The translations under genes were made by a program, and so were the position numbers. Of a DNA stretch of 64,000 nt, positions 10,356 to 60,358 are shown in pieces. Where the stretch lies: the NCBI GenBank assembly GCA_040954595.2, contig CM082596.2, positions 8,383,124 through 8,447,123 of the forward strand. Reading direction: 5' to 3'. The notes beneath the pieces are model-generated. The model searched no databases. It was not told where the DNA came from and was given only the letters and a program-made list of their open reading frames with translations. How positions within the stretch are numbered: the stretch's first letter is position 1; every line of letters begins with the position of its first letter. The stretch is from Balanoglossus misakiensis. Lineage: Eukaryota; Animalia; Hemichordata.

Positions 10356-11772
10356 TACATGTAATAAAAAGAATTTGGGTTATTGCAATAAAAGTGTAGT
10401 TTACACGAAATTTGAAGTTTCTACAAATAACAGTTCATTATTTTGCAGTCTATGTTAATCTCATTTGAAGGCGACTGAGTTTCGCAGCACTAACTTGTGA
10501 CAGGAGGAAAATATACGGCCGGTACTTAGTGGTAACTACCTGATGAATTCTGTAAGTCTGTAATTGATAGGGTGGAGCTGTAGTGTACAAGGAGGTTCAG
10601 AGCTGACCTCACTTTATAGGGGTCAGTCTGGACTGTGAATGGACAAGTGGTCGTCAATAAACTGTGACAAATGGGTGTCAGCACCTTGGCTACGTAAATC
10701 ATGTTTCGTTCAGATGGTGGAAAGTTACTCAAGTACAGTGGCAGGAACCGTCTGGCAGAGACCCTGTGATTCGCCTTCTTCCTTTCTATCACAGCTGGAA
10801 CACACGCGCGCGCGCCCCCTAGAGAAGCGACGCGGATCTCAGGGTCTGCACATTCTTGCAAGCGACCAGCAGAGATTTTGACAGATCCTGGAACTTTATA
10901 GAACTTGAGGCATCCGCCAATCAGAAATAAATTTTACACTCGCTGAATCACAGACCGTATTATGGACAATGTCACTGTTGTACCATGTGACCTGGTCTGA
11001 ACCACTGTAGTTCCAATCTGATTAAAATCAGATGTAGAGTACAGCGACGTCTTTTACTTCACAAAGTACGGTATTATTTGCCTTAGTGTGAGGTGACAGC
11101 ATAAGAGAATACAGAGCAGTGCAAGTGCAATACGTCGCCGTACCTTACTTCTGATGTCAATCAGATTGTACAGGTTCATAAATAAGGAAACAAGTCATTG
11201 TCAATGACACAGTCCCTGCCGCATGTAGATAGGAAATCATGGTGGAATGAACTCCACCAGGGCATGTGTGCGAAACGGCTCTGAAAAGTAGTGAAAAAAG
11301 TATGAACCTGGTACTAATGAGGAGTACCACAAAACAATCATCAATAAATACTTGACATCACCATGCAAATGTACGTCTTAACAAATTCTTCTTTTGTCAT
11401 GGTGAAGAACGTCAGTTACAACACCTGACATGAAAACCTCACAATACACCAGCTGACAGCCATTACTGGAAAAGTCCTAAGGTCTTTAATGAATCCAGTC
11501 AGGCATATTTGAAGCATTAACTCTTGACATCCTCAAATGTATATAATAAAAATTGTGCCAAGGACACTGTGTTCTCATTTGACCACAATTGCTACATTCA
11601 AAAATGACATATATCGGTTATACATGCTGATCTATTTCCCATTCAAACCCACAAAGTCACCTTGAAACTTATGAGATAATAGATGAATACATTCTGAAGG
11701 AGAAGATGACCTGGCAAATCAAAGTTCAAGGTAGCAACCGGATGAGCAGTTTCTGAAAAGTAGATTTTATTT

Positions 11773-12000
11773 TACCAAAATGACAAAAATTGCCAACAGT
11801 ACTGTTTTTGTCATAATTTTTTGGACAAGCCAATTTGAGGCAATGCTTCTAGTCCAAAAATGTCAAAAATTGCTCAAAAATCTTTTCTTTTTTTTACCAC
11901 AATGACAAAAATTGCCAACAATACTGTTTTTGTCATAATTTTTTTGGAAAAGCCACTTTGGGGCAATGTGTCTAGTCCAAAAATTCAAAAATTGCTCAAA
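11773..12000. repeat. Two-copy ~120-bp tandem duplication
   Basis: ttacca.aatgacaaaaattgccaaca.tactgtttttgtcataatttttt...aattgctcaaa repeated at ~11773 and ~11894. Confidence 0.85.
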
Positions 12001-12073
12001 TATCCAATGGGTTCATCAAGATGACAACCCTAGAACCCAGCAACCAAATATCTTAAATGCTCTCTTCGAACAG

Positions 12074-12334
12074 GCATCACCATCGAATACGAGTCGGGCC
12101 CGGTAAGCTACACACTGGCCTGTGACATTACAGATGGCGCCACCTCGGTGCAGCCAGTGGTCACTGTCAACATTGACCCAGTAAACGAACACATCCCAAC
12201 GTTCATGCCAGCAGCGTGGACTGTGTCCCACGGCGAGAATACCGCAGTCGGTTCTCTCATCGTGGACGCCTCGTCGAACGTGGCTGACGATGATGATCCA
12301 CCTCATGCAATCACCGCTTATTCTTTGAATTCAG
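12074..12334 (+). other. Isolated cadherin-repeat exon (nested gene exon or captured gene fragment) inside kinase intron 4
   Basis: gaacag|GC...TCA G|gtataa, 261 nt, stop-free, phase 1/1. Encodes ITIEYESGPVSYTLACDITDGATSVQPVVTVNIDPVNEHIPTFMPAAWTVSHGENTAVGSLIVDASSNVADDDDPPHAITAYSLNS. Cadherin motifs: IEYE (LDYE), PVNEHIPTF (DxNDNxPxF), ENTAVGS, ADDD. Confidence 0.8.
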
Positions 12335-15300
12335 GTATAATATTCAACTGTTCATCATGTTTCGTCATATACGAGCCATACAACATACACGCTTGCTTCC
12401 CTCAGTTTGGTTGCTGAACTTCATCATGCAAGAATACCACTCACTGCAGTAGTTGCCTCAGTTTTGTCTGACATCAACACAACAACTACCAAAACAGAAC
12501 AATCGGTATACAGAGTACAGTTTCTATCTGACACAAAAGAATACTAGTATGCTACCAATAAGACATCAAATCAGGTCCGATAAACCAATATCATTCAAAG
12601 AAAGCTAATTACCAGGTCCAAGACAGAAATAAGAGAAAAAATGACAATTTCATCAAATCAGGCGTAACCACAGATTTTACTACGACCTATTTTGTCAAAG
12701 TTGTCTTCGTGAAACTTCGCTCGCTGTTCGAACATCACAGAAACGTTGTGATTTCATCACATGTTACTCAGCTCATCGTGGTTTTGAGGGCAATTTCTAC
12801 GATCGATAAAGCATTCAGAGAGACAATGGGGTTGCAATGAATGGAAACGACTGTCGATTTCTTGCCACGCACGCACATATTAACCGCGCTTTATTGTAAA
12901 TCATAATGACATTTTATATTCCCTTGTCTGGCCGGGTGTGGTGTTCAATGCCACGAGAAACGCCATCGTTGAATGAGTCATTAAATAGAGTTTCCAATGG
13001 CCACGGTCCATCAAGCGACTATTAGAAAACTGACTGTAGGCCGGTCATTAACAATGATGGAGGTGTCCTATTCTACTTAACAACAGCAACAGTTACAGCT
13101 TTATTAGCTGTAACTTTTTTAGCTGTGTTTTAAGTATTTTTGTTTTGTGTATCTACTGCAGTTTCTTGTTGTTTCTGAATCATGACGAAATGCCCAACAT
13201 TTAGCTTATCAACACAACATATATGTGTATGGTCAGCATTATTTTTGTGCAAAATTTGTCCGGACTAGAATTTATTTGTCAACAATAACAACGGTCGTTA
13301 CACATATACAGGCTTTGTTGACAAGCAGTATACTGGGTATATTAGCATGTTGTTCGGAGTAGAACACAAAATCGCATTTTATTATACACGGAACAAAAAT
13401 ACTGAAGATACAGCCAAATGTTACAGCTGATACTGTCAACCAGGTACTATTTTCTCAGAATGCTGTTGCTCTTTTCTTGAGGTCACTCCCTTGCATGAGA
13501 AGTGGACGTGAGTAGCCCCTTCATTGTCAAGTGCTTCAAGAGCAACACTTGTGATGATCAACCCACTGCATTGCCAATTCTGTTACAGGCTGCCACTATT
13601 TCTTCAACTGCCTTGGACAACCAGAGAAAAAACATGCAATTTTCCATATTATCAAACATATACTGCTGTAACTTATTGAGTCCTGTCATACAATACGTTT
13701 CTGTATGTGTACAGTATGCTGATTCACCAATCACGTCATGTGCACACGTCATGTGTACACGTACAGATGTACTGAGTGACTGAAGCATTCTATATTTGGC
13801 TAGATCAGCCTAGATGCCAAAAAGTTGTATTAATTTTGTAACAATTTCATTCAGTTCTCCTCTGCATTGATTTCATGGTGGAAGGCATTATTATCAATAT
13901 TTATAATAGCATAATCATAAGGTTATACACAAAATATCGCCATGTTTGGACTTGAGCTTCATACACGAGGAATTGGACTTGTGTACGACTGGTCCATGGG
14001 GCCTTCATCCGCATTTTGTGAATATCCCTATATCATTGGTACTTAAGACATCTAAGTATGTATGCCAGATATTTAACACAATAATTTAACCTTTATTTCT
14101 TTAATACCAGGTAGGATACCAGGATTTACCAATACAATCACAGTTCTGGATACAATGGTAAAGAGTCCAAGACATACTGCCACAACACTGGATACACCAA
14201 TGCTGGGGGAAAAACCCACTGTATGGCATTGCATATCATAGCATAGTCTAGTAACCAGCCATGTTTTAAAACACGCTAGACACTAGGCTAGATATACCAT
14301 AGAAGGATGCCAAGACAAACTGATGCAGCACGCTTGATTATCTTTTTACAACGTGTTGACTTTTTTCCAAAGATTGCTCAATCATTATGAATGTACACAA
14401 AAAGTCATTCACACTTTTGGATTACAACTAATACGTAAAATACAGGATTGCGGTTTTTGCCTGTCTATAGAAGTCCACTACCGCCAGCCATGCAATACAC
14501 TTTCATTCAATTTGTCAAGTGCTAATGTAGGGCCCAATGGTTGATCAGAAATGTCATTGTTCAATCAATAATTTAGTTATCACAAAAAAACTTTTTTTCA
14601 TAAAAAGAACTTAGGAAGTATGCACCTGAAGTTATTCTGATAATTAGAACTTGTGTCAGAAGTACTGAGTTCTTGATGTATCAACTGCAATCATGCACTT
14701 ACAATAGGGGACTTTCGAGTTGGGGAGTTCTCGCATCCCTGCAGTTGGCGCACTTGTGTACCTCATGATTGACATACGGTGGGACAACCCCAAAAGTTGC
14801 GCCATTGAATTAAACAATGGCAATGCACTTACAATTCTGCCTGCCTTAATAGGTTTTGACTTTGTGCTAGGGGGTCAAATCACATTACAATAATTGCATT
14901 CTGGGTAAGAAGTTGACAACTCTCTTTAGTAAGAGATAGAAGAAATGATATGTTTACTGTATTGCATGACTTCCTTTGGTCAAACATGTCGGTTTTTGTA
15001 GTCAGCATATTAAAATATTTCATGAGCAATGTTAAGTAGACTTAAATTTTGTCCCTTCTTACCAAATCTGTTGTCTTTTCCCAATCTCCGAAACAGACTA
15101 TGGTGGCCACTGTCGTGACTGTTGTTATCACAGCACACTGCCTTATGGCATTGACTGTATACAATTTTTGTAACCAGAGTCTCTGGTTTGACTCATGCAT
15201 GCACATAAGACGATCCTCCTTTAACATTTCTACAAGTTCAATCTACTACATTTTCACAGAAGCAATGTAAATTTAGACAAATATGTCACTGTTTTTCGCA

Positions 15301-19200: not shown

Positions 19201-20271
19201 GGTTGATATGCATGTGAATGTGCATCAGAGACAAAAGTGGACAAAAAACTACATCTGCCCGCTCGTTGTTGTCACAGTATCATTGTTTTGTCATCTGCAG
19301 CGAGACTTGCTCGCTCGCTCGGCCCGTGCGGACCAAACATAGTGGTGTCTTCACTACAATGAAAGCAGAATCTGCATTTAAAAGGAGCTGTACAGCCAAT
19401 TAGCCAAGAAAAAAAGGTGGGGGGGGGGGGGTGGCGGCCGTGTAAGACAGCTTTGTCTATTCAAAACAGATGTGTCTGTCTCTATCAATCATTGTTAGAT
19501 TTTTCTTTGAGAATGGTACGTGGGAGAACCCTGCTACACTTAGGAGATTTCTCAATCAACCCCAAAAAACTACAGTCTTGGTAGAAACAAACTGATAACT
19601 ATCTTTTCATTCCCAGTTTATTTTCCTGGATGTTTCGTACAATCATGTAAATTAGACATGACTAGCTCATTACAATATTTCAATTAATGCTTGAAGGTTT
19701 CCGTGAGTAGGGACCAAGGCCACACTGCAAACTGGACTGTGTTTGCTCAACAAATGTTATCGGAATGGAAAACCAACAAGCTTCAATAATTGTTCCAAAG
19801 AAGACCAGATGCAAAAAGGATGAGGGAGGGCCAAGGGAGGGAGGGTGGTGGAGTGAGCACCTTTGGCGTATTAGGGAAAGTCCAGATCATTTTTTCAACC
19901 CTTTCACCACCATGGTTCAGTCCAAACCTTTTGGTTTCCATGGTAAGATTGGACCTATAAGGAGAGAACTGGGGGTGAAAAGGATCATAAAAATGACAAC
20001 ATTTTGGTTTTATTTTAGGGAAATTGAACTTGAGCATTACAGAAATACAGCGCTTGCAGCTCTGTCTGGATGGGATTATTTATCAAAGTCAACATAACCT
20101 TGGCTTTTAAACCTTGACTTCATACTTTTCACCATTTCATCATGGAAAGAATTCTTGAAAAATACACTGCCAGGTAAAATGACAGACGATAGCGTTCAAA
20201 GACTAGAGCTGGTTCTTAGTCACACAGACATGGCCTTGCACCTGCTAACCAGAAACAGGAGATGTTTTCAT

Positions 20272-20463
20272 CAGATAACTGGCATAAAACAATACTACAT
20301 TTGCATAACAATGACATGCAACAGATAACCAGCATACAACAATACTACATTTGCATAACAATGACATGCATCAGATAACTGGCATAAAACAATACCACAT
20401 TTGCATAACAATGACATGCAACAGATAACCAGCATAAAACAATACTACATTTGCATAACAATA
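20272..20463. repeat. 50-bp minisatellite, about 4 units
   Basis: Units start at 20272, 20322, 20372 and 20422 (cagataac..gcata.aacaatac.acatttgcataacaatgacatgca). Confidence 0.95.
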
Positions 20464-23400
20464 ACAGACAAGTAATATCACTTGCCAATGAATTATTCTA
20501 AAGCTGAGGATTATGTTTGTTTCAGTAATCATAAAGGTACACACACACAAAAGTACCCATTAGGAAATTAAGTAGCTGACAAGGAAATGTATCAAAATCG
20601 GGTTGGCTGGTCATTGACTAATAAATGGCTTTACTTTCACCCTTGACCTAATCACAACACCTACTGGAAAATCCGGGAATTCACACCCAAGGATGACCAG
20701 ACTGTCTTTCCAGAACTGAAGGATATTCCAGTACAAATTTATTCTTACAGATTTTTTGACACTCGATTAGGGAAAACATGGCCCATTTCATTTGGTTATT
20801 TTGACAAGGAAAGAGGGATATTGCTACTGTTCACAGATAAAAAAAAAAAAATTCAAATTGGGAAGACACTTGGATTTTCTGAACTTCAATAGTATCCTAC
20901 TTTGTACTGCAATATAGATTTTAAAATTGTCACCACTGAAATCATTGTTTGATTTTGCTAAAACAAATAAATAAAAGACAAAAAGTGATAATTGTGAAAT
21001 TATGAAAGAGTAATGATGCTGTTTGGGAGAGGGAGAGCTGGATGATGTTATATACAGAGGAGGGATTCTAACTCTGCATGCTCAGAATAACAGTTTTTAA
21101 GTGTCATAATTTAGCATCATCTAAAAACATGCTCATCACAGCTTATTTTCTCAGTACTGAAATCTAAAAGTTGCTCAAGTGCAGTCGTTTTTACTCAGTA
21201 CAACTTTGCTGTCAAATTTGTACTGTGCATGGACCCAAAATAAAAATCCACAAGCACACCACTCTTATTTAGAAGCAGAACTCTTCTGGATTTTCTTGGC
21301 CTTTAATACTGAAACGTCCCCACCCAAATTCTCAGCACAGAATCTCCATTGTCAAATGACTTTGATTCAAGTGAGGAAAAAAAATTCCAGTGATGAAAAC
21401 AGAATAATAATTCCAAGGTAGTTATTTATATTTAGTGAATTGCCAGAGGGCTGGCAAACGTGAGCTTCAGTCATTACTTGGCAATGAAAATGAACAAGAT
21501 ATCGCCATCCCTCATGTTAACTCTTTTGGACAACTAATTATTTTAATCTTTCTTGAGCTACACACACTAATTTGAATAAAAATCTTCCTAATTTTTTCGG
21601 CTGGCTATTTTTCTACCCCGTGAAGCATGGGCGTCTGCCCTGAGCAGAGACAACGACATAACGGCCAGTTACGTGATGGCAAGTCATGTGACCAAAATTA
21701 TGACCAATTGTGGGTATCACTTGGAGCTAGTCCATTCATAAAAAGTACAATGGTGGTAGAGTGAGTGTCACACTTAATTTAACCACTAAATCACGCAGGA
21801 TACAAAGTAGTGACTCTGGATCATCTTTTGTTGGACGCTAGTCGCACAGGTAGTTTTTTGGCCCCGTTCACAGGTGGTATCCACTGCCATATATCTTTCT
21901 CTGCTCTTGTCAAACCAGTTGTATCATGAGAGAAACACATCACACATGGTCTGGACAAAAAAAAAAATTGCCCTCCATACACAAACTGACCGCACGGAAA
22001 CACGGAATTAACAATAATGCTGGATCGGGACTGGATGAAGAAGATGCCATTTGGAAGGAAGCGCAAAGAAGATGAATGGGACAACTGTGGGTGAGTGAAA
22101 ATGCCTAAGTAAGAGACTGCTATATGCGCGCACAGAGAATCTCAAGGTCGCATACAATACACAGTTGTACAAACTCAGCATTATAAATGATCTGTCAGGA
22201 GTCAATTCATCAATGTCAGCACTTCACTAAAGACATACTTCTGGGCTTTGATTTACGCCGTGGTCGCTAAGTCAATCAAATATGGACACCAAAAATCTGT
22301 CAAGACATCATGTCTGACTTACATAACATTGTGAATTTTTTTTGCGGGAGATTAAAGTCAGTGTAAACTTCCAGGTTGGAAATGGAAAAAGCTGTTCAGA
22401 GGCTATTGTCCATTTCTGAAATAATCTCCATTTTTTTTTACATGACTGTTCATTTTTATTTGATGCAATCAACTTCTATTGCATGTCTAAATAGTAAATG
22501 CGAACTATAAAAAATATGTCATGGGGCCCGGACATGTGACATAGAATTAAAAATAAAATGAAGATAAAAACGGAACCTCGTAACTGGTACCAGACCAAAC
22601 ATCAATCTCAAAACTAACGAATTTCACTTGTTTGTGTTTTTTGTTATGAAAATGAGTTTTTTCCTTCAAAATATGTAGGTCAAGAAAGCAATTACTGTAG
22701 GCAATACATAACGCTTTATACGACGTGAAAAAATCAAGTTACGTAACGTTAAGGATGAAAGAAGAAGTGATCTGCCATCTGGCTATGGTAATTAATTATT
22801 GGATTTAAGTACAAAGAATACTCATGGAAAGCAGAAACAAATTCATGACCTTTTTAATTTTTATCCAACTTTTCTACTAAATGGCTCAAACATGATGACA
22901 CTTTAAACATCATTAAATCATATTGTATTCTGCAGGCGACCATATTTTAAATCTTATAAACGACAATCTCACAAATTACATCTTGTCAATAAAATCAGCA
23001 AAATACATGTAAAACACTGACATCTCACATGTAGGGCAAGACACCAATTTTCTTTCCAGTTTTCAATGTCACAACACAAACACGGTCGACTGGAGCAGTC
23101 ACAGCCACACAAACCCATGTCAAACACCCAGAGGCCTCAATAAACTACATCTCTGTACTGGAATAACTGTTTTCCAGATTAATTATACACTTAGATTATT
23201 CCAAATGTAATGTGATTTGATTATGTTGATGTAGTACCTCATTTAAAATGGAAAATATGGAAGGAAATGATGACATTCGTTGAATAATCACAGAAATTGC
23301 AAAAATTATTAACACGGCTACAACAGTTCCATTCAGTGGACTGATCAAACATTTGGGCGAATGAAATGCATGGCCAGGTTCGGTGTCCTTGAATACGGAA

Positions 23401-50100: not shown

Positions 50101-52124
50101 ATGTGTAATTGGCTGCTGAGTCAGCCAGTCCAAGCCTTTCTGCATGTCGAACACACACTCATGTGTCACTCATCCTTATGTCTTTATTATTATTCATGTC
50201 ATTCAAATAAGGAATTTCCTGCATTAATGAAGACAAATCTGAATAATAATGAAAAAGTGTAATTAGAATAAGACATATGTATTTATGCAATTACTACTGG
50301 GTAAAGCTATAGTGAAGTGTCCAGATTTTTATATTGTCCTGCATAAAGGTTTTAATCGAAATTATTACCCATGAAAATTTGGGATTAACTGCAGATATCT
50401 TCATAAGCAGAGAATACTGTGACATGTACCATAAGGTAGGTTTAAAAACAATAAGTGACATGTTATGTATTTATATATATATATATATGTATTGTTGTAA
50501 GGAATCACAGAGCAGGTCTGTTGATGCAGACGGTTGGGACATTACGCTAGTGTAGATAGGGGCCCATTTATGAAGACTTGGCTAGATAAACTGAGCCCCC
50601 TGCATGTGTTTTTGGTTGAACGACAAACATTTTATACACAAAGGTACCTGTGAAGATAAACTACAAAGTCAATAACATTGACCTTGCTTGAACTTTAACT
50701 GACTCCAATGTATTGATTGTTTTAGTTAATAAGGTTTGTTTTGAAATGTTATCTCTTTCATCCAGCCAAATCTAAATATAGACGGTTACAGGGACACTGC
50801 ATACAAGTATTACTGAACTTTACATGACCTCTCATTACTCAAGGTGACATGATCTCCATGTTTTATACAAGATAATTTCAATTCACATGTCTACTGTACA
50901 ATAAAATCACATAGCATTTGTCTGAGGGGTATGGAATTTGGGAAAATAATCTTCAGGGAAGTGAACTCAATAGACTTTGTGAAGAAAATGAAAACAAATC
51001 TATGGTCAGAGTGAATCACAAAGGAAGTGAGAATGTCTTAGAATAGAAGTATCAGTTATAGTTTAATTTAGTTGGCATAGTTACATGTATAGCCATGAAA
51101 TGGTTCAGTTTACCGGCAGTCTGTTCAGCAAAACTATTGCACTTAATTATCAACCCTTTCACCACCATGGTTTGGTCCAATTCCATTGTTTTTGGTGGCA
51201 ATGCTAGACCTAAAGTTTTGTTTCAATTTCAGGGATTTGGGCGAGCTGATAGACACCTGTTGGGTTTGTTTTATGTATAGGAAAACCTGTCTAAACCGAA
51301 CACTAAAGAGACTGAAGAAACTGGTTGATCTGTAAAGGTGTCTGGTTTATACAGGTTCTTTAACATGTGCTTCTACTGTACATGTATGTCAATGGGACAG
51401 GAACAAGTGTTCGGTATGGACAGGTTTCCAGATTAGATAAGGTTCGGTTTAGACAGGTTTTACTATACTAATACATGTATTAAAAGTAAATAAAACCGAT
51501 TTCTTGCAGAAGAAAACAAGAGACTGTATTGTTGTCACAACTTATGAAAACTTCAACCCGCTACCAAATGTGCCTGCAGTTTTCAAACAGTAATTTGTGT
51601 AAAGTTTAAAGTAACTTGCACCTCAGGAATTCTGAAGAACTGCCAACATTGGTTATGTTCAGACCATTGTACTCAAAATGAAATATATATACAATTGATC
51701 AAGCTACGATAGATCCAATAAAAATAGACAATTGTTGCAGTTCGTTAATTGCTGGGAAACAGGACATATGTTTTCTTTCATAGTGTTATCTCCGCCTATT
51801 CTCTTGTTTTGAAACATTGACCTTGGTTACTATGCTAAATCATACTTCCTTTGAGACTGTTATTGTATTTCAGCAGATGAACTTGAACATGACAATGATC
51901 AACTTATTTTTCCCGTTTGTGCTTATAGGCCCATCAGTTCAGTTGATAGTGACTATATGGTAACATTGACACTGCAATATTCTTTTCTGTTCCTACACAA
52001 GGATTCACCTGTCCAATTTGTTGTGAGCATTACTCTGTATTAAGATTGAAAACAACCCCAGTTGATCTCCTACTTATAGCTTTGTCCTTTTGTCGTAATG
52101 CTCCATCAGGTTGCAAGACCTAGG

Positions 52125-52698
52125 ATGAGTGAAGACCGAAGTGAAGTCATTGATGAACTCAGTATATTAGAAAGGAGTGAGTCGCCATCGAGCAAGCCCG
52201 CTTTGAGAGTCGAGTTTCAGATCGGTCCCGACCAGGAGCTGTGCAGCAACACCACCACCACCAGCGACAGCACAATGCAGCAGAGCCACCAAGAATTGGT
52301 CAGTATTGCCGAGCATCCGACGGATCCCAGCCAATCCAGCTCTTCACATTCCATGGGCGAGAGCGCTTTCCAGCTGCACGTGGTCACCTCGGCGCCGGTC
52401 CCCATTCCGGGGTCGGCGTCGTCGTCGAGTCGCGCCGGACCCCCTTTTGCCATTCAGACCTCGCCCGTCTACAGTTCACCGCAGTCTTTCATGATCCGCC
52501 AGAGTGTGTCGGCGCCGGCCCTGCCCTGCTATTTCTGCGGCAGCAGCCCCAAAGTGTGCCACACTGCGTCCACGCAGACCACGGCCCAGTCGGCCATGAT
52601 GGACCACAGACAACAAGCGGCAGCGGACAGTGAGGACAGTGACAGTGGTGACGAGAGCGACGATGACACCATCGAAGAAGTGCCACTCTATCTCCCCG
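52125..52698 (+). CDS. BH3-only protein (BIM/BAD-like), first coding exon: disordered Ser/Pro-rich region, LC8-binding TQT motif, acidic tract
   Basis: Acceptor ctccatcag|52110, ATG at 52125, GC-rich open frame of 191 codons, donor CCC G|gtaagt (phase 1). Contains GPPFAIQTSP...FMIRQS...CYF...SPKVCHTASTQT, collinear with BimEL as recalled. Confidence 0.85.
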
Positions 52699-55600
52699 GT
52701 AAGTCGATCCCGTCCTGTCAATATTTAAAACACAACATCTACATAACACAGTGTCAGTAACGGTCGCTTTTTTCGTATTAACTGTATTAAACTTTGTGAC
52801 ACTGGTTGAATTGTTTGTTATTTTGGAGTTAACCGTTTTCTGTGAAAATGACGTTCCAGTCCAACATCTATAGATCTCCACACATGACTTTGATTGTGTA
52901 TAATATAGAAAGTTGTCGTCTGCCTTAAACAGTGAGAGAAATATCGTCACTAATATGGGCAGCAGAGTGTGCCCCCTAAGCCAATATGACCAACCACTGA
53001 CTCGACAAACTCACTGGTGACTCAAGAAAAGTATCCACAAAACAATACATGCAAATGTACAGGGTTGACTCAGAGAAATTTCTAGAAATCCTCAAATTGG
53101 CCCAAAGCTTTCGAAAATTATATTTGTTAGAGGGCACACTGGGCATTATTGTCATTGGCTTGAGTGTGGTGTACATGTATCTTAACCAGAACAGATTTTT
53201 GTCTTGTAACCATTTAGGGTATATAGTCAGATTGGTTTACAATAGTTTGTTTTTCCCAGTCAGATGTTTCACCTGTGTTGTATTTTATTGTGACATTAAA
53301 TGCAATTGTTTGCTTTCATTCAGCGCATATAGCGTCTTAGACCTGACAAAAAGTGTTCAATTGATTGATGACACGTACCTGAGGGATGTTCAAAAGAACA
53401 GACAAAACGATTTACATGCCCTTGAACTAGGATGAAGTAAGTCACGGCCAAAAGTGCTACATATTGCCTCATTTTGGCCAGCTATCTGTGAAACTACCAT
53501 ACACGCTATGTCAAAGGTGAATGGAAAAAATCAATATGGCTTAGGTTTATTGATTGGGGTAGTAACAATGCACAGCCTTGAAGGAAAGACTTGACCCACG
53601 CAGCTGTGGTGATGGTCAAAAATCAATACATGGATAGAACATTGCCAGAGCTAAAAAACCATCATCAAGTATACGGCCATGGCCCTGTACAAACTCAAAT
53701 CCCCTGAGGACCTTGTGCCTTTCTGGACTCTGTCCCAATATCTAACACCAAGCCAATATATACAAGTTCTCATCACAATCTATTTCCTTGATAATCTGTA
53801 ATTTAAAAAAAAACCAGACATTCAATGAAACCTATCCTTTTGTGTGATCAATCTAAACCAATACAGAACCAACTATGGTAGATTTTTTTAAAAACTGTCC
53901 AAATCACATTTTCATCTATGAAATGATTGAAATAGTTAATACACTTTGGTCATGGTGTTGCCATCTGGTCGATTAAACAGCAAAATCTTCTGAGATTGAC
54001 AAATTCTTCAGAGGACAATTTGTACTCAGGAATGAGAGTAAGGTCAAAAATAGTTCAAGGTTACGGTTAAATAATTATGGATGACACTGTCAGTTGTAAT
54101 AATTGACATTTTGAGTGCTGAGAACCTCAACATCAACTAGAACCTAGCCCAAATAATCGTCTATTATTTGGTCTGTTGATCAAATAGTTGTCTTTGTGTT
54201 TTAACAGTGGGGTGAAATATAGTGTCCAGATTGGTTGTTTTGCTTTTCAGGAACTGGTAGTGTAGTACTGAAAGATAAAAATGAAAATACAAGAACCTAA
54301 TTTTGAAATTGTTATCTTTGAAATATATGTTTAATTCTGTAAATTAAAATGTGACATGACTTCCAGTATTTAAAGAACCATATCTGAATTTGCCATCAGT
54401 CACAGACAGTCACAGATACATGATCAGAATAGATACATGTACCACAATGTATGTGAGCTCTGTCACCAAAGAATTTCCACTCTTTTTGTTAAATTTGAAT
54501 TAATTTGTACCATATCATATGTTTTGACTATATGGTCTGTCATAATTTCAAGCAAGTCAAATTCAGTGTGAGTCTGCAGTCGCGCATTTGACCTCAAAAT
54601 GTTTGAATGAAACCTGAGATGAAACATGTTGAAAACCTGAGATGAAAAATGCTCATAAATATTTGAATGTTGCGTGATATTGCCCGGTATCAATGGTGAT
54701 GGTTGCATCATTAATTTACCACAATCGGTCATCGGTACCAGTTTATCCGGGACAAAAGCAGTTTTAAGTACCAGGAAAATTGGAATTGCCTGCATCATAT
54801 GTCACAGTGACATTGACTTCAAGGTCAGGGAGTACATACATGTACCTGTTGCGATTTGAGGCCATTTTGATTTTGCTAGGAAAGCCTGTGATTGGCGCGT
54901 TTACATGTACAACACAGAAGTGTTGCTTGTGAGTACTGCATACATGTAGACTAATGTGGTGACACCGATTTGAATGGCAGTGACTCAGTCCACTGTGGTT
55001 TGAGCAGTTATGTAGGTTTTGGGTTCAAGTTCAGGTCAGACCACTGGCTGTGGCATTGACACCACTGTGGTACAGTTGGTGATGGTACATGGACCACTGA
55101 TGCCAGTGGTAGTGATACCACCCTGATAACAGTATTAACACCATATATGGTTGTACCACCATCAATGGTGTACTTTTCACTAATTCAGTTCAAAAAAAGC
55201 ATGTAGGACATTCACAGCATGACACCTGATGTGTTATCATGGCCACATTTCAGTTTGGCACCTTCTGTGGTAATACCACTGTAATAACTTTCACTGATTG
55301 TGGCAAGTACATGTACAAAGCAACAGAGTTTAGCACCTTGTAAACAGAAACGAAGTGGCCCAGCTAACAGGTGGCAATTAATTCAAGAGACTCTCTCTCT
55401 CTCCATCCAGCCAGTCTTATCAGCGGTATCAGTAAAATACACAGTGAGTGTACATGTAGTTAGTCTCTCCACCCACAGCTCTGAATAGTTCTTTGTCCTC
55501 AAAAAGTAGCGACCTTTTTTTTCGAAATGAGGGGGGCGGAATAACACACTGCCTTGTGCTTTGCAATAAATCTTGTTCAGTTGGTTTTTCAGAGGTGACT

Positions 55601-59963: not shown

Positions 59964-60163
59964 GGAATGGTAATAACCGTTGGCGATCCCGGTCTGAGTC
60001 GGACGACCCTGGCAGCCGCACTCGATGCCACCCGTTGCCGGACTTGTTGGAATTCCGCAACCGATCCCACTCGGAGCCAGCAGATATACGACCTGAGATT
60101 GAGGTTGGCCGGGAATTACGCCGGATTAGCGATGAATTCCACCTGTCTTATCAGGAATGCAGG
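59964..60163 (+). CDS. BH3-only protein (BIM/BAD-like), BH3 exon
   Basis: caattag|GG...AGG|gtcagt, 200 nt, phase 1/0, in phase with the 52698 donor. Encodes (G)NGNNRWRSRSESDDPGSRTRCHPLPDLLEFRNRSHSEPADIRPEIEVGRELRRISDEFHLSYQECR; the BH3 core L-x-x-I-S-D-E-F is at 60116-60139. The downstream terminal exon was not identified. Confidence 0.9.
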
Positions 60164-60358
60164 GTCAGTCAACAATTTATTTAAACTATATTCATAATTA
60201 TTATCATATCATATCATTTCTTGCTTTTATATCCCCTCTGATGAAGTCTTGTATGTATAAAAAAACAAAAGCAAAATGTGGTGATGTTGGTGACGGCATT
60301 GTCATTTATGTATTGCTGGGTTTGATCAATGTTCAAGTTAATTTTTGTGAGTGTTTAA

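Follow-up and report, generated by a model that had tools for sequence, protein, structure and literature searches.

The window analysed here is a 64,000-nucleotide stretch of the genome of the hemichordate Balanoglossus misakiensis (contig CM082596.2, positions 8,383,124 to 8,447,123). Its forward strand carries two coding exons of a predicted BH3-only gene, with the following features:

52125..52698, + strand: first coding exon; ATG at 52125, 191 codons plus one base, Ser/Thr-rich and predicted to be disordered
52108-52109 and 52699, + strand: first-exon splice signals read from the sequence, an inferred acceptor AG and a donor GT in phase 1
52389..52409, + strand: S-x-P-[IVM]-x-[IV]-P motif, present in 12 of 17 invertebrate sequences (hemichordates to Lottia) and in 0 of 14 BIM/BAD sequences
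52497..52517, + strand: RQSVSAP, with R, serine and proline invariant in 4 of 4 hemichordate-type sequences
52542..52550, + strand: SSP before the TQT, invariant in 4 of 4 and gap-free against the SSP before the fish BIM TQT (in a 17-column profile match)
52560..52583, + strand: HTASTQTT, candidate LC8 (DYNLL) binding motif with Ala at -3 and Thr at +2; TQT at 52572-52580
59964..60163, + strand: BH3 exon, phase 1 in and phase 0 out, donor GT at 60164; 85% identical over 66 residues to the Ptychodera flava protein P0002
59978..60001, + strand: first RxRxxS site (Ser202/Ser204), placed like BAD Ser112
60056..60079, + strand: second site, RxRxxSxP, reading RNRSHSEP (Ser228), 19 residues before the BH3 serine, as is BAD Ser136
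60098..60139, + strand: single BH3 motif with the conserved Leu and Asp and four hydrophobic positions; contains Ser247 (RRIS)

The original prediction had described a BimEL-like motif string at 52431-52583 (+) that ends in a dynein light chain motif at 52557-52580, and both the 51-residue translation and the position of the motif were reproduced exactly. CHTASTQT occupies 52557-52580, the TQT anchor 52572-52580 and the usual eight-residue LC8 window (-5 to +2) 52560-52583. The segment sits within the 191-codon exon, in a GC-rich open frame (52080-52760) amid AT-rich, intron-like DNA. The exon is taken to be coding because it is 55% identical over 162 columns to the annotated P. flava protein P0002, in an alignment that begins at Met1 of P0002; tblastn gives a match at 52125-52700. 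Against Pfam and PDB the first exon returned nothing relevant, the sole Pfam match being VC2046, below its cut-off.

A scan for BH3-like motifs gave a strong match at 60107, in an exon that lies 7.3 kb downstream. Joined at 52698/59964, the two exons read in frame through 258 codons without a stop. P0002 matches both in the same order, and the joined form is also found in the annotated Glandiceps talaboti protein P0003, which, with the contig protein P0004, comes after P0002 among the matches. The terminal ∼35 residues of the orthologues, past the BH3 exon, had no tblastn match anywhere within the window; the last exon would then fall outside it, with the BH3 exon as the second-to-last coding exon. 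No multi-motif Bcl-2 fold was matched in Pfam or PDB, consistent with the BH3-only class. The ESM Atlas model of the Ptychodera orthologue has a pLDDT of 0.46, and the ESM Atlas clusters named PUMA, BMF and BIM, at 0.79-0.88 and all under the 0.9 bar, are a lead only. As judged from its exons and orthologues, this part of the window belongs to a real, spliced gene whose predicted product is a BH3-only protein.

The surroundings of the gene were surveyed with a Pfam scan of 150 of 222 selected frames (1-41 kb), drawn from 565 frames of 45 or more codons; beyond 41 kb the scan covered the two exons. It returned one weak match below cut-off and no neighbour gene. Between 37001 and 40000 the observed/expected CpG ratio is 1.0-1.3, compared with mostly 0.2-0.7 elsewhere, and the AT skew switches; this is perhaps an unmethylated promoter 12-15 kb upstream, with a possible non-coding first exon of the gene. 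An isolated GC- and CpG-rich frame at 12034-12417 (+) resembles, by eye, part of a cadherin repeat and had no Pfam match at E 0.01. Tandem repeats lie at 11766-12004 (122 bp, two copies) and 20269-20466 (50 bp, 3.9 copies).

The BH3 is, by its sequence, BIM-type. The BH3 exon scores 49.5 bits against Pfam Bclx_interact (cut-off 25), 30.2 against Bcl-2_BAD (28.2) and 13.1 against BMF (27), and the 17 best PDB matches are all BIM BH3 peptides, with a best E of 4e-4 compared with 0.35 for the first BAD peptide. With vertebrate BIM (BCL2L11; PF08945) the protein shares the BH3 sequence, a TQT upstream of it and a BH3 on its own second-to-last coding exon, the layout described in PMC7022251. Unlike BIM, it has Ser for Gly within the BH3 and an acidic linker, and its TQT and BH3 are 93 residues apart, compared with 38-58 in BIM.

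The serines of the BH3 exon follow a different model. BAD is silenced via phosphorylation at Ser112, Ser136 (the main 14-3-3 site) and Ser155, according to PMC1368972. The window protein carries Ser202 or Ser204, Ser228 and Ser247 in the order of these three sites, and Ser247 occupies the position of BAD Ser155, where BIM has Gly. Ser228 is predicted to be the main 14-3-3 site. The gap-free 19-residue spacing between the last two sites is found in the window, in 3/3 BAD sequences and in 15/46 fish-type BIM sequences, whose BH3 residue is Gly, but in 0/70 tetrapod-type sequences. Because fish BIM has kept this pre-BH3 RxRxxS at the 19-residue spacing, it bridges BIM and BAD. Vertebrate BAD (PF10514) also shares with the window the GRELRR.SDEF core and, with the orthologues, a Trp-bearing C-terminal segment.

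The likeness to BAD has limits. The residues ahead of the BH3 core are BIM-like, TQT occurs in 0/5 BAD sequences and the BAD N-terminus is much shorter. Against the Bcl-2_BAD model (cut-off 28.2) the window exon lies only 2 bits above the cut-off and P0002 (29.7) is also above it, whereas P0003 (21.0) and P0004 (20.8) fall below; true BADs score 51-87. BMF (PF15185), compared by its Pfam model alone, has a TQT upstream of the BH3 in common with the window and is a listed LC8 binder in PMC6607443, but the proteins score 13-17 bits against a cut-off of 27, and a weak match in P0002 (E 0.0044) runs over the BH3 and C-terminus, with the TQT region unmatched. Outside the BH3 helix, the sequence of the protein is as BAD-like as it is BIM-like, a point that the original prediction had missed.

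As a lone motif the TQT is weak, because 5.9% of 100,000 shuffled versions of the exon contain one (1.3% for STQT), and conservation carries the case. STQT is invariant in 4/4 hemichordate-type sequences, and those are only 38-56% identical to the window's exon. With a profile built from the hemichordate-type proteins P0002, P0003 and P0004 we searched 1.84 billion representatives and obtained 38 at E<=1e-3, comprising 13 full-length (>=240 aa) invertebrate proteins, six vertebrate proteins and 19 short ones (75-196 aa). All 13 full-length invertebrate relatives, 11 of them from outside the query, have a TQT 76-104 residues before the BH3, where the chance per protein is 0.2-2.3%. They are two query proteins and proteins of a sea urchin, starfish, crinoid, amphioxus, brachiopod, annelid, limpet and three bivalves, together with one echinoid-like protein. 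For P0011, P0036, P0037 and P0040 the match was confined to one stretch, in the BH3 exon, so the search cannot have selected these for their TQT. The vertebrate matches are three BADs (E 4.5e-6 to 5.5e-5) and three BIM-type proteins (E 1.1e-4 to 7.6e-4). Among the short matches, which were not named as vertebrate (names were checked for 20 proteins), 18/19 are without TQT; these include an annotated Tubulanus protein of 148 aa, but most have the look of gene calls made from a single exon.

Sequence conservation thus supports the TQT as a real, conserved motif in a BH3-only gene related to BIM. The window and the echinoderm, amphioxus, brachiopod, annelid and mollusc proteins have in common the order PIxIP, TQT, RxRxxS, LPD, RxRxxSxP and a BH3 with an internal serine. 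The LPD, at 60035-60043 just before the second RxRxxS, is present in 17/17 invertebrate sequences and 0/14 BIM/BAD sequences. Several further features of the first exon and its counterparts were noted. RQSVSAP is a possible basophilic-kinase/14-3-3 site (R at -4, P at +2); the original prediction had likewise suggested a 14-3-3 site there. A cysteine pair at 52527-52541 (C135, C138) is invariant in the hemichordate-type sequences where echinoderms and BIM have SSGYxS, and amphioxus has a comparable CxxC further upstream. DSGDES at 52641-52658 fits DSGxxS, but is absent from the three orthologues and was not taken as a degron. Near the N-terminus of 7/7 full-length lophotrochozoan-type relatives (P0011, P0027, P0034, P0036, P0037, P0040 and P0181) there is a DSGYx[ST], a candidate beta-TrCP degron by its sequence and placed differently from that of BIM.

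That this TQT binds LC8, as the original prediction proposed, we consider quite probable from its sequence. The anchor lies in a region predicted to be disordered, with at least five preceding non-proline residues. Of the original interpretation, the conserved TQT, its probable use as an LC8 site and the relation of the gene to BIM are supported. None of the four hemichordate-type sequences fits the textbook motif (K/R)xTQT (PMC2871139), but by our hand count of the PMC6607443 table, K/R stands at -3 in only 28/79 verified binders, Ala at -3 in 6/79 binders and 0/32 non-binders, and Thr at -4 in 8/79 and 0/32. STQT by itself does not discriminate (17/79 binders and 5/32 non-binders in the same count). 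CAPRIN2, an ITC-verified binder in that table, is identical to the window at -4 to +1. Among BIM proteins, 119/120 have TQT, of which 15 are without K at -3 and four have Ala there.

The complex predicted for the TQT with LC8 scored 0.47 (runs 0.04, 0.64 and 0.47), compared with 0.03 for the best of three controls, which is weak support; the score is uncalibrated for peptides and disordered chains. Contact agreement was at least 25% and partner pLDDT at least 44 across the runs; the LC8 partner was a metagenomic stand-in with 150 bits to Pfam Dynein_light. The mark is passed by 51/78 solved complexes and 2/108 mismatches, but scores past the mark and at or below 0.60 account for only 5/78 solved complexes, yet for all four passing mismatches (of 180). 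The passing score may also reflect memory, LC8–TQT complexes being already solved. Viral contigs yielded no instance of the LC8 pattern.

The alternative that survives best accepts that the family uses its TQT for LC8 and holds that the window copy has decayed, with Ala at -3 and Thr at +2, to binding that is weak or needs an already dimeric chain, leaving 14-3-3 control. PMC6607443 describes a small residue at -3 as disfavoured, prefers Pro, Asp or Glu at +2 and notes that many TQT peptides do not bind LC8. Pro stands at +2 in 119/119 BIM sequences with TQT and in 9/11 independent full-length relatives, but not in the window, and the prediction itself is unstable, with runs from 0.04 to 0.64. 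Against a decayed site, STQT is invariant among these divergent hemichordate-type sequences, and the near-identical CAPRIN2 motif binds, as do the 4/79 binders in the hand count of PMC6607443 that have Thr at +2. We therefore regard decay as unlikely, and a functional LC8 site as the better reading.

The same segment has been read as evidence for a one-to-one BIM orthologue in which the whole BimEL string, with its ERK/JNK sites, degron and LC8 site, was conserved as a block. The BimEL sequence given in the original prediction matches that of a macaque BimEL (P0099 in our search), and the short motifs PFA..SP, FM.R.S, YF, SP and STQT do occur in the claimed order. As homology to BIM independent of the BH3, however, the string does not stand, and the comparison with shuffled sequence that the original prediction named as its refutation goes against it. 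A pattern of the full string was found in 0/100,000 shuffles, which is no test because the pattern was written from the very sequence tested. In pairwise comparisons with BIMs cut before the BH3, 142-862 of 2000 shuffles did as well for four tetrapod BIMs and 24-321 for five fish BIMs; with the last nine residues removed, the range became 116-1918 across all nine and 412-1918 for the five fish BIMs. We also built a BIM profile from 37 distinct segments, taken from the 84/120 BIM sequences having KSTQT and a BH3 match. It gave the window segment 7.6 bits (reached by 23/500 shuffles) and the whole exon 7.0 bits (99/500); 12/17 other invertebrate sequences score better (<=5/500 shuffles), and three BADs had no match.

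Profile-profile comparison around the TQT gave probabilities of 1% for tetrapod BIM, 23% for fish BIM (17 columns) and 96% for echinoderms (64 columns). When STQT was masked, the score was reached by 34/60 shuffled profiles for tetrapod BIM and 42/60 for fish BIM, but by 0/60 for echinoderms, a match that is carried by the S-x-P-[IVM]-x-[IV]-P motif. Only the 12 residues directly before STQT match fish BIM modestly (36/2000 shuffles, compared with 1226/2000 for tetrapod BIM), in one of 32 uncorrected tests. The SSP within them is a possible proline-directed phosphosite, judging from its sequence. PFA..SP is present in 1/4 hemichordate-type sequences and 66/120 BIM sequences, and FM.R.S in 2/4 hemichordate-type sequences. 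The window YF corresponds at best to the SSGYFS of BIM, the Ser93/94/98 beta-TrCP degron (PMC4695108), with the degron serines and glycine missing. SSGYxS is found in 116/120 BIM sequences and SSGYGS precedes the TQT in 6/6 echinoderm-type sequences, and both are replaced in the window. The JNK site, BIM Thr116-Pro in PMC4695108, is absent because the proline at +2 is missing after the TQT, as is K at -3, and Pfam Bim_N had no match in the window's exons or in the orthologues.

A one-to-one BIM orthologue would account for the BIM-type BH3, for the TQT and for the 17 aligned columns from SSP to STQT, and on 80 columns the tree test stops short of formally rejecting a branch that joins the hemichordates to BIM (p-AU 0.069). 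It does not account for the BAD-type serines, for the BAD-like C-terminus of the orthologues, for a family profile that ranks BAD over BIM or for an upstream string at shuffle level, and we judge it distinctly improbable. The opposite reading takes the gene for a TQT-bearing BAD orthologue, or a member of a BAD-like lineage, and gives BIM a separate origin. It draws on the three-serine layout with its spacing of 19 and on reedfish BAD, which differs from the window at one of the eight residues around Ser228. When the tree is rooted at its midpoint, BAD falls among the invertebrates and BIM lies on a long branch. The absence of TQT from the BAD sequences and the nearer BIM match of the BH3 speak against this reading, as do the degron or TQTPSP that echinoderm and amphioxus relatives have in common with BIM and the pre-BH3 site that fish BIM retains; this origin appears less probable still. 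Convergence, in which unrelated disordered BH3-only genes each acquired TQT and RxRxxS, fares worst: the motifs are short and could converge, ∼45 residues align to vertebrates, the upstream profile matches to BIM disappear once STQT is masked and BH3-only proteins have been called polyphyletic (PMC11463336), but several motifs in the same order, a fixed spacing common to window, BAD and fish BIM, and E-values down to 4.5e-6 among 1.84 billion proteins make it very improbable.

Invertebrate BH3-only candidates are already in print. Suraweera et al. 2022 (PMC8998228) describe them from echinoderms, Saccoglossus, amphioxus and lophotrochozoans, found with BIM/BAD/BMF seeds, and call for experimental confirmation. 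Like the window gene, they have the BH3 on one exon and are predicted to be disordered, with 350-373 aa in echinoderms, and they very probably belong to the same family. The alignment in PMC8998228 covers the BH3 only, and its main text nowhere uses 'dynein', 'DLC', '14-3-3' or 'phosphoryl'. In the open full-text literature searched, no report of the layout of an LC8 TQT, BAD-type serines and a BH3 turned up. The conservation of the TQT and the BIM/BAD mosaic layout are the main result, and the BimEL motif string of the original prediction carries less weight.

The presence of BIM and BAD signatures in one protein suggests that the two descend from one gene. In a tree of 80 columns from the BH3-exon region, BIM and BAD form separate supported groups and the invertebrate backbone is unresolved; the two fall on one branch in 1% of bootstrap trees, an arrangement that is not rejected (p-AU 0.31). 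BUB1/BUB1B paralogues lie beside BIM and BMF, and PLCB2/PLCB3 paralogues beside BMF and BAD. If both BIM and BAD come from one bilaterian gene, the window gene is a co-orthologue of the two rather than a one-to-one BIM. We think it likely, though with slightly less assurance than LC8 binding itself, that it is an unduplicated bilaterian BH3-only gene of this kind, predicted to be regulated by LC8 and 14-3-3. The wider proposal, which we favour more cautiously, makes BIM, BAD and probably BMF paralogues of one bilaterian gene that stayed unduplicated in hemichordates, echinoderms, amphioxus, brachiopods, annelids and molluscs. Its ancestor would have had LC8 docking, a beta-TrCP degron, two Akt/14-3-3 sites and a PKA serine within the BH3, and the vertebrate duplicates would have divided these controls: BIM would have retained the TQT and degron and lost the pre-BH3 site in tetrapods, and BAD would have retained the three serines and lost the TQT.

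By analogy with these proteins, the gene product may work as follows. The TQT would add a beta-strand to an LC8 dimer, which would thereby join two chains in complexes with dampened killing activity; LC8 is described to pair BIM into such activity-damping complexes (PMC5666674). Survival kinases of the Akt/RSK/PKA type would phosphorylate Ser202/204, Ser228 and Ser247, allowing 14-3-3 to sequester the protein from its targets, as in BAD. Once released, the BH3 helix would fill the groove of pro-survival Bcl-2 proteins, so that Bax/Bak might be freed or activated. Lacking the degron and the JNK site, the window copy may lean more on BAD-type control. The LC8, 14-3-3 and Bcl-2 binding steps are all inferred.

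The usual view of BH3-only proteins is that they share a short motif but no common descent, and comparisons of the invertebrate candidates have so far been confined to the BH3. If our reading is correct, LC8 control of apoptosis would be older than the protostome–deuterostome split, and BH3-only proteins, although called 'polyphyletic', would have a genuine gene family at their core. A single protein that combines BIM/BMF-type LC8 control with BAD-type 14-3-3 control would offer a testable explanation for the origin of the vertebrate death triggers and for the division of regulation among them. It would also provide a concrete death-trigger candidate for knock-down in sea urchin, amphioxus, oyster and acorn worm embryos.
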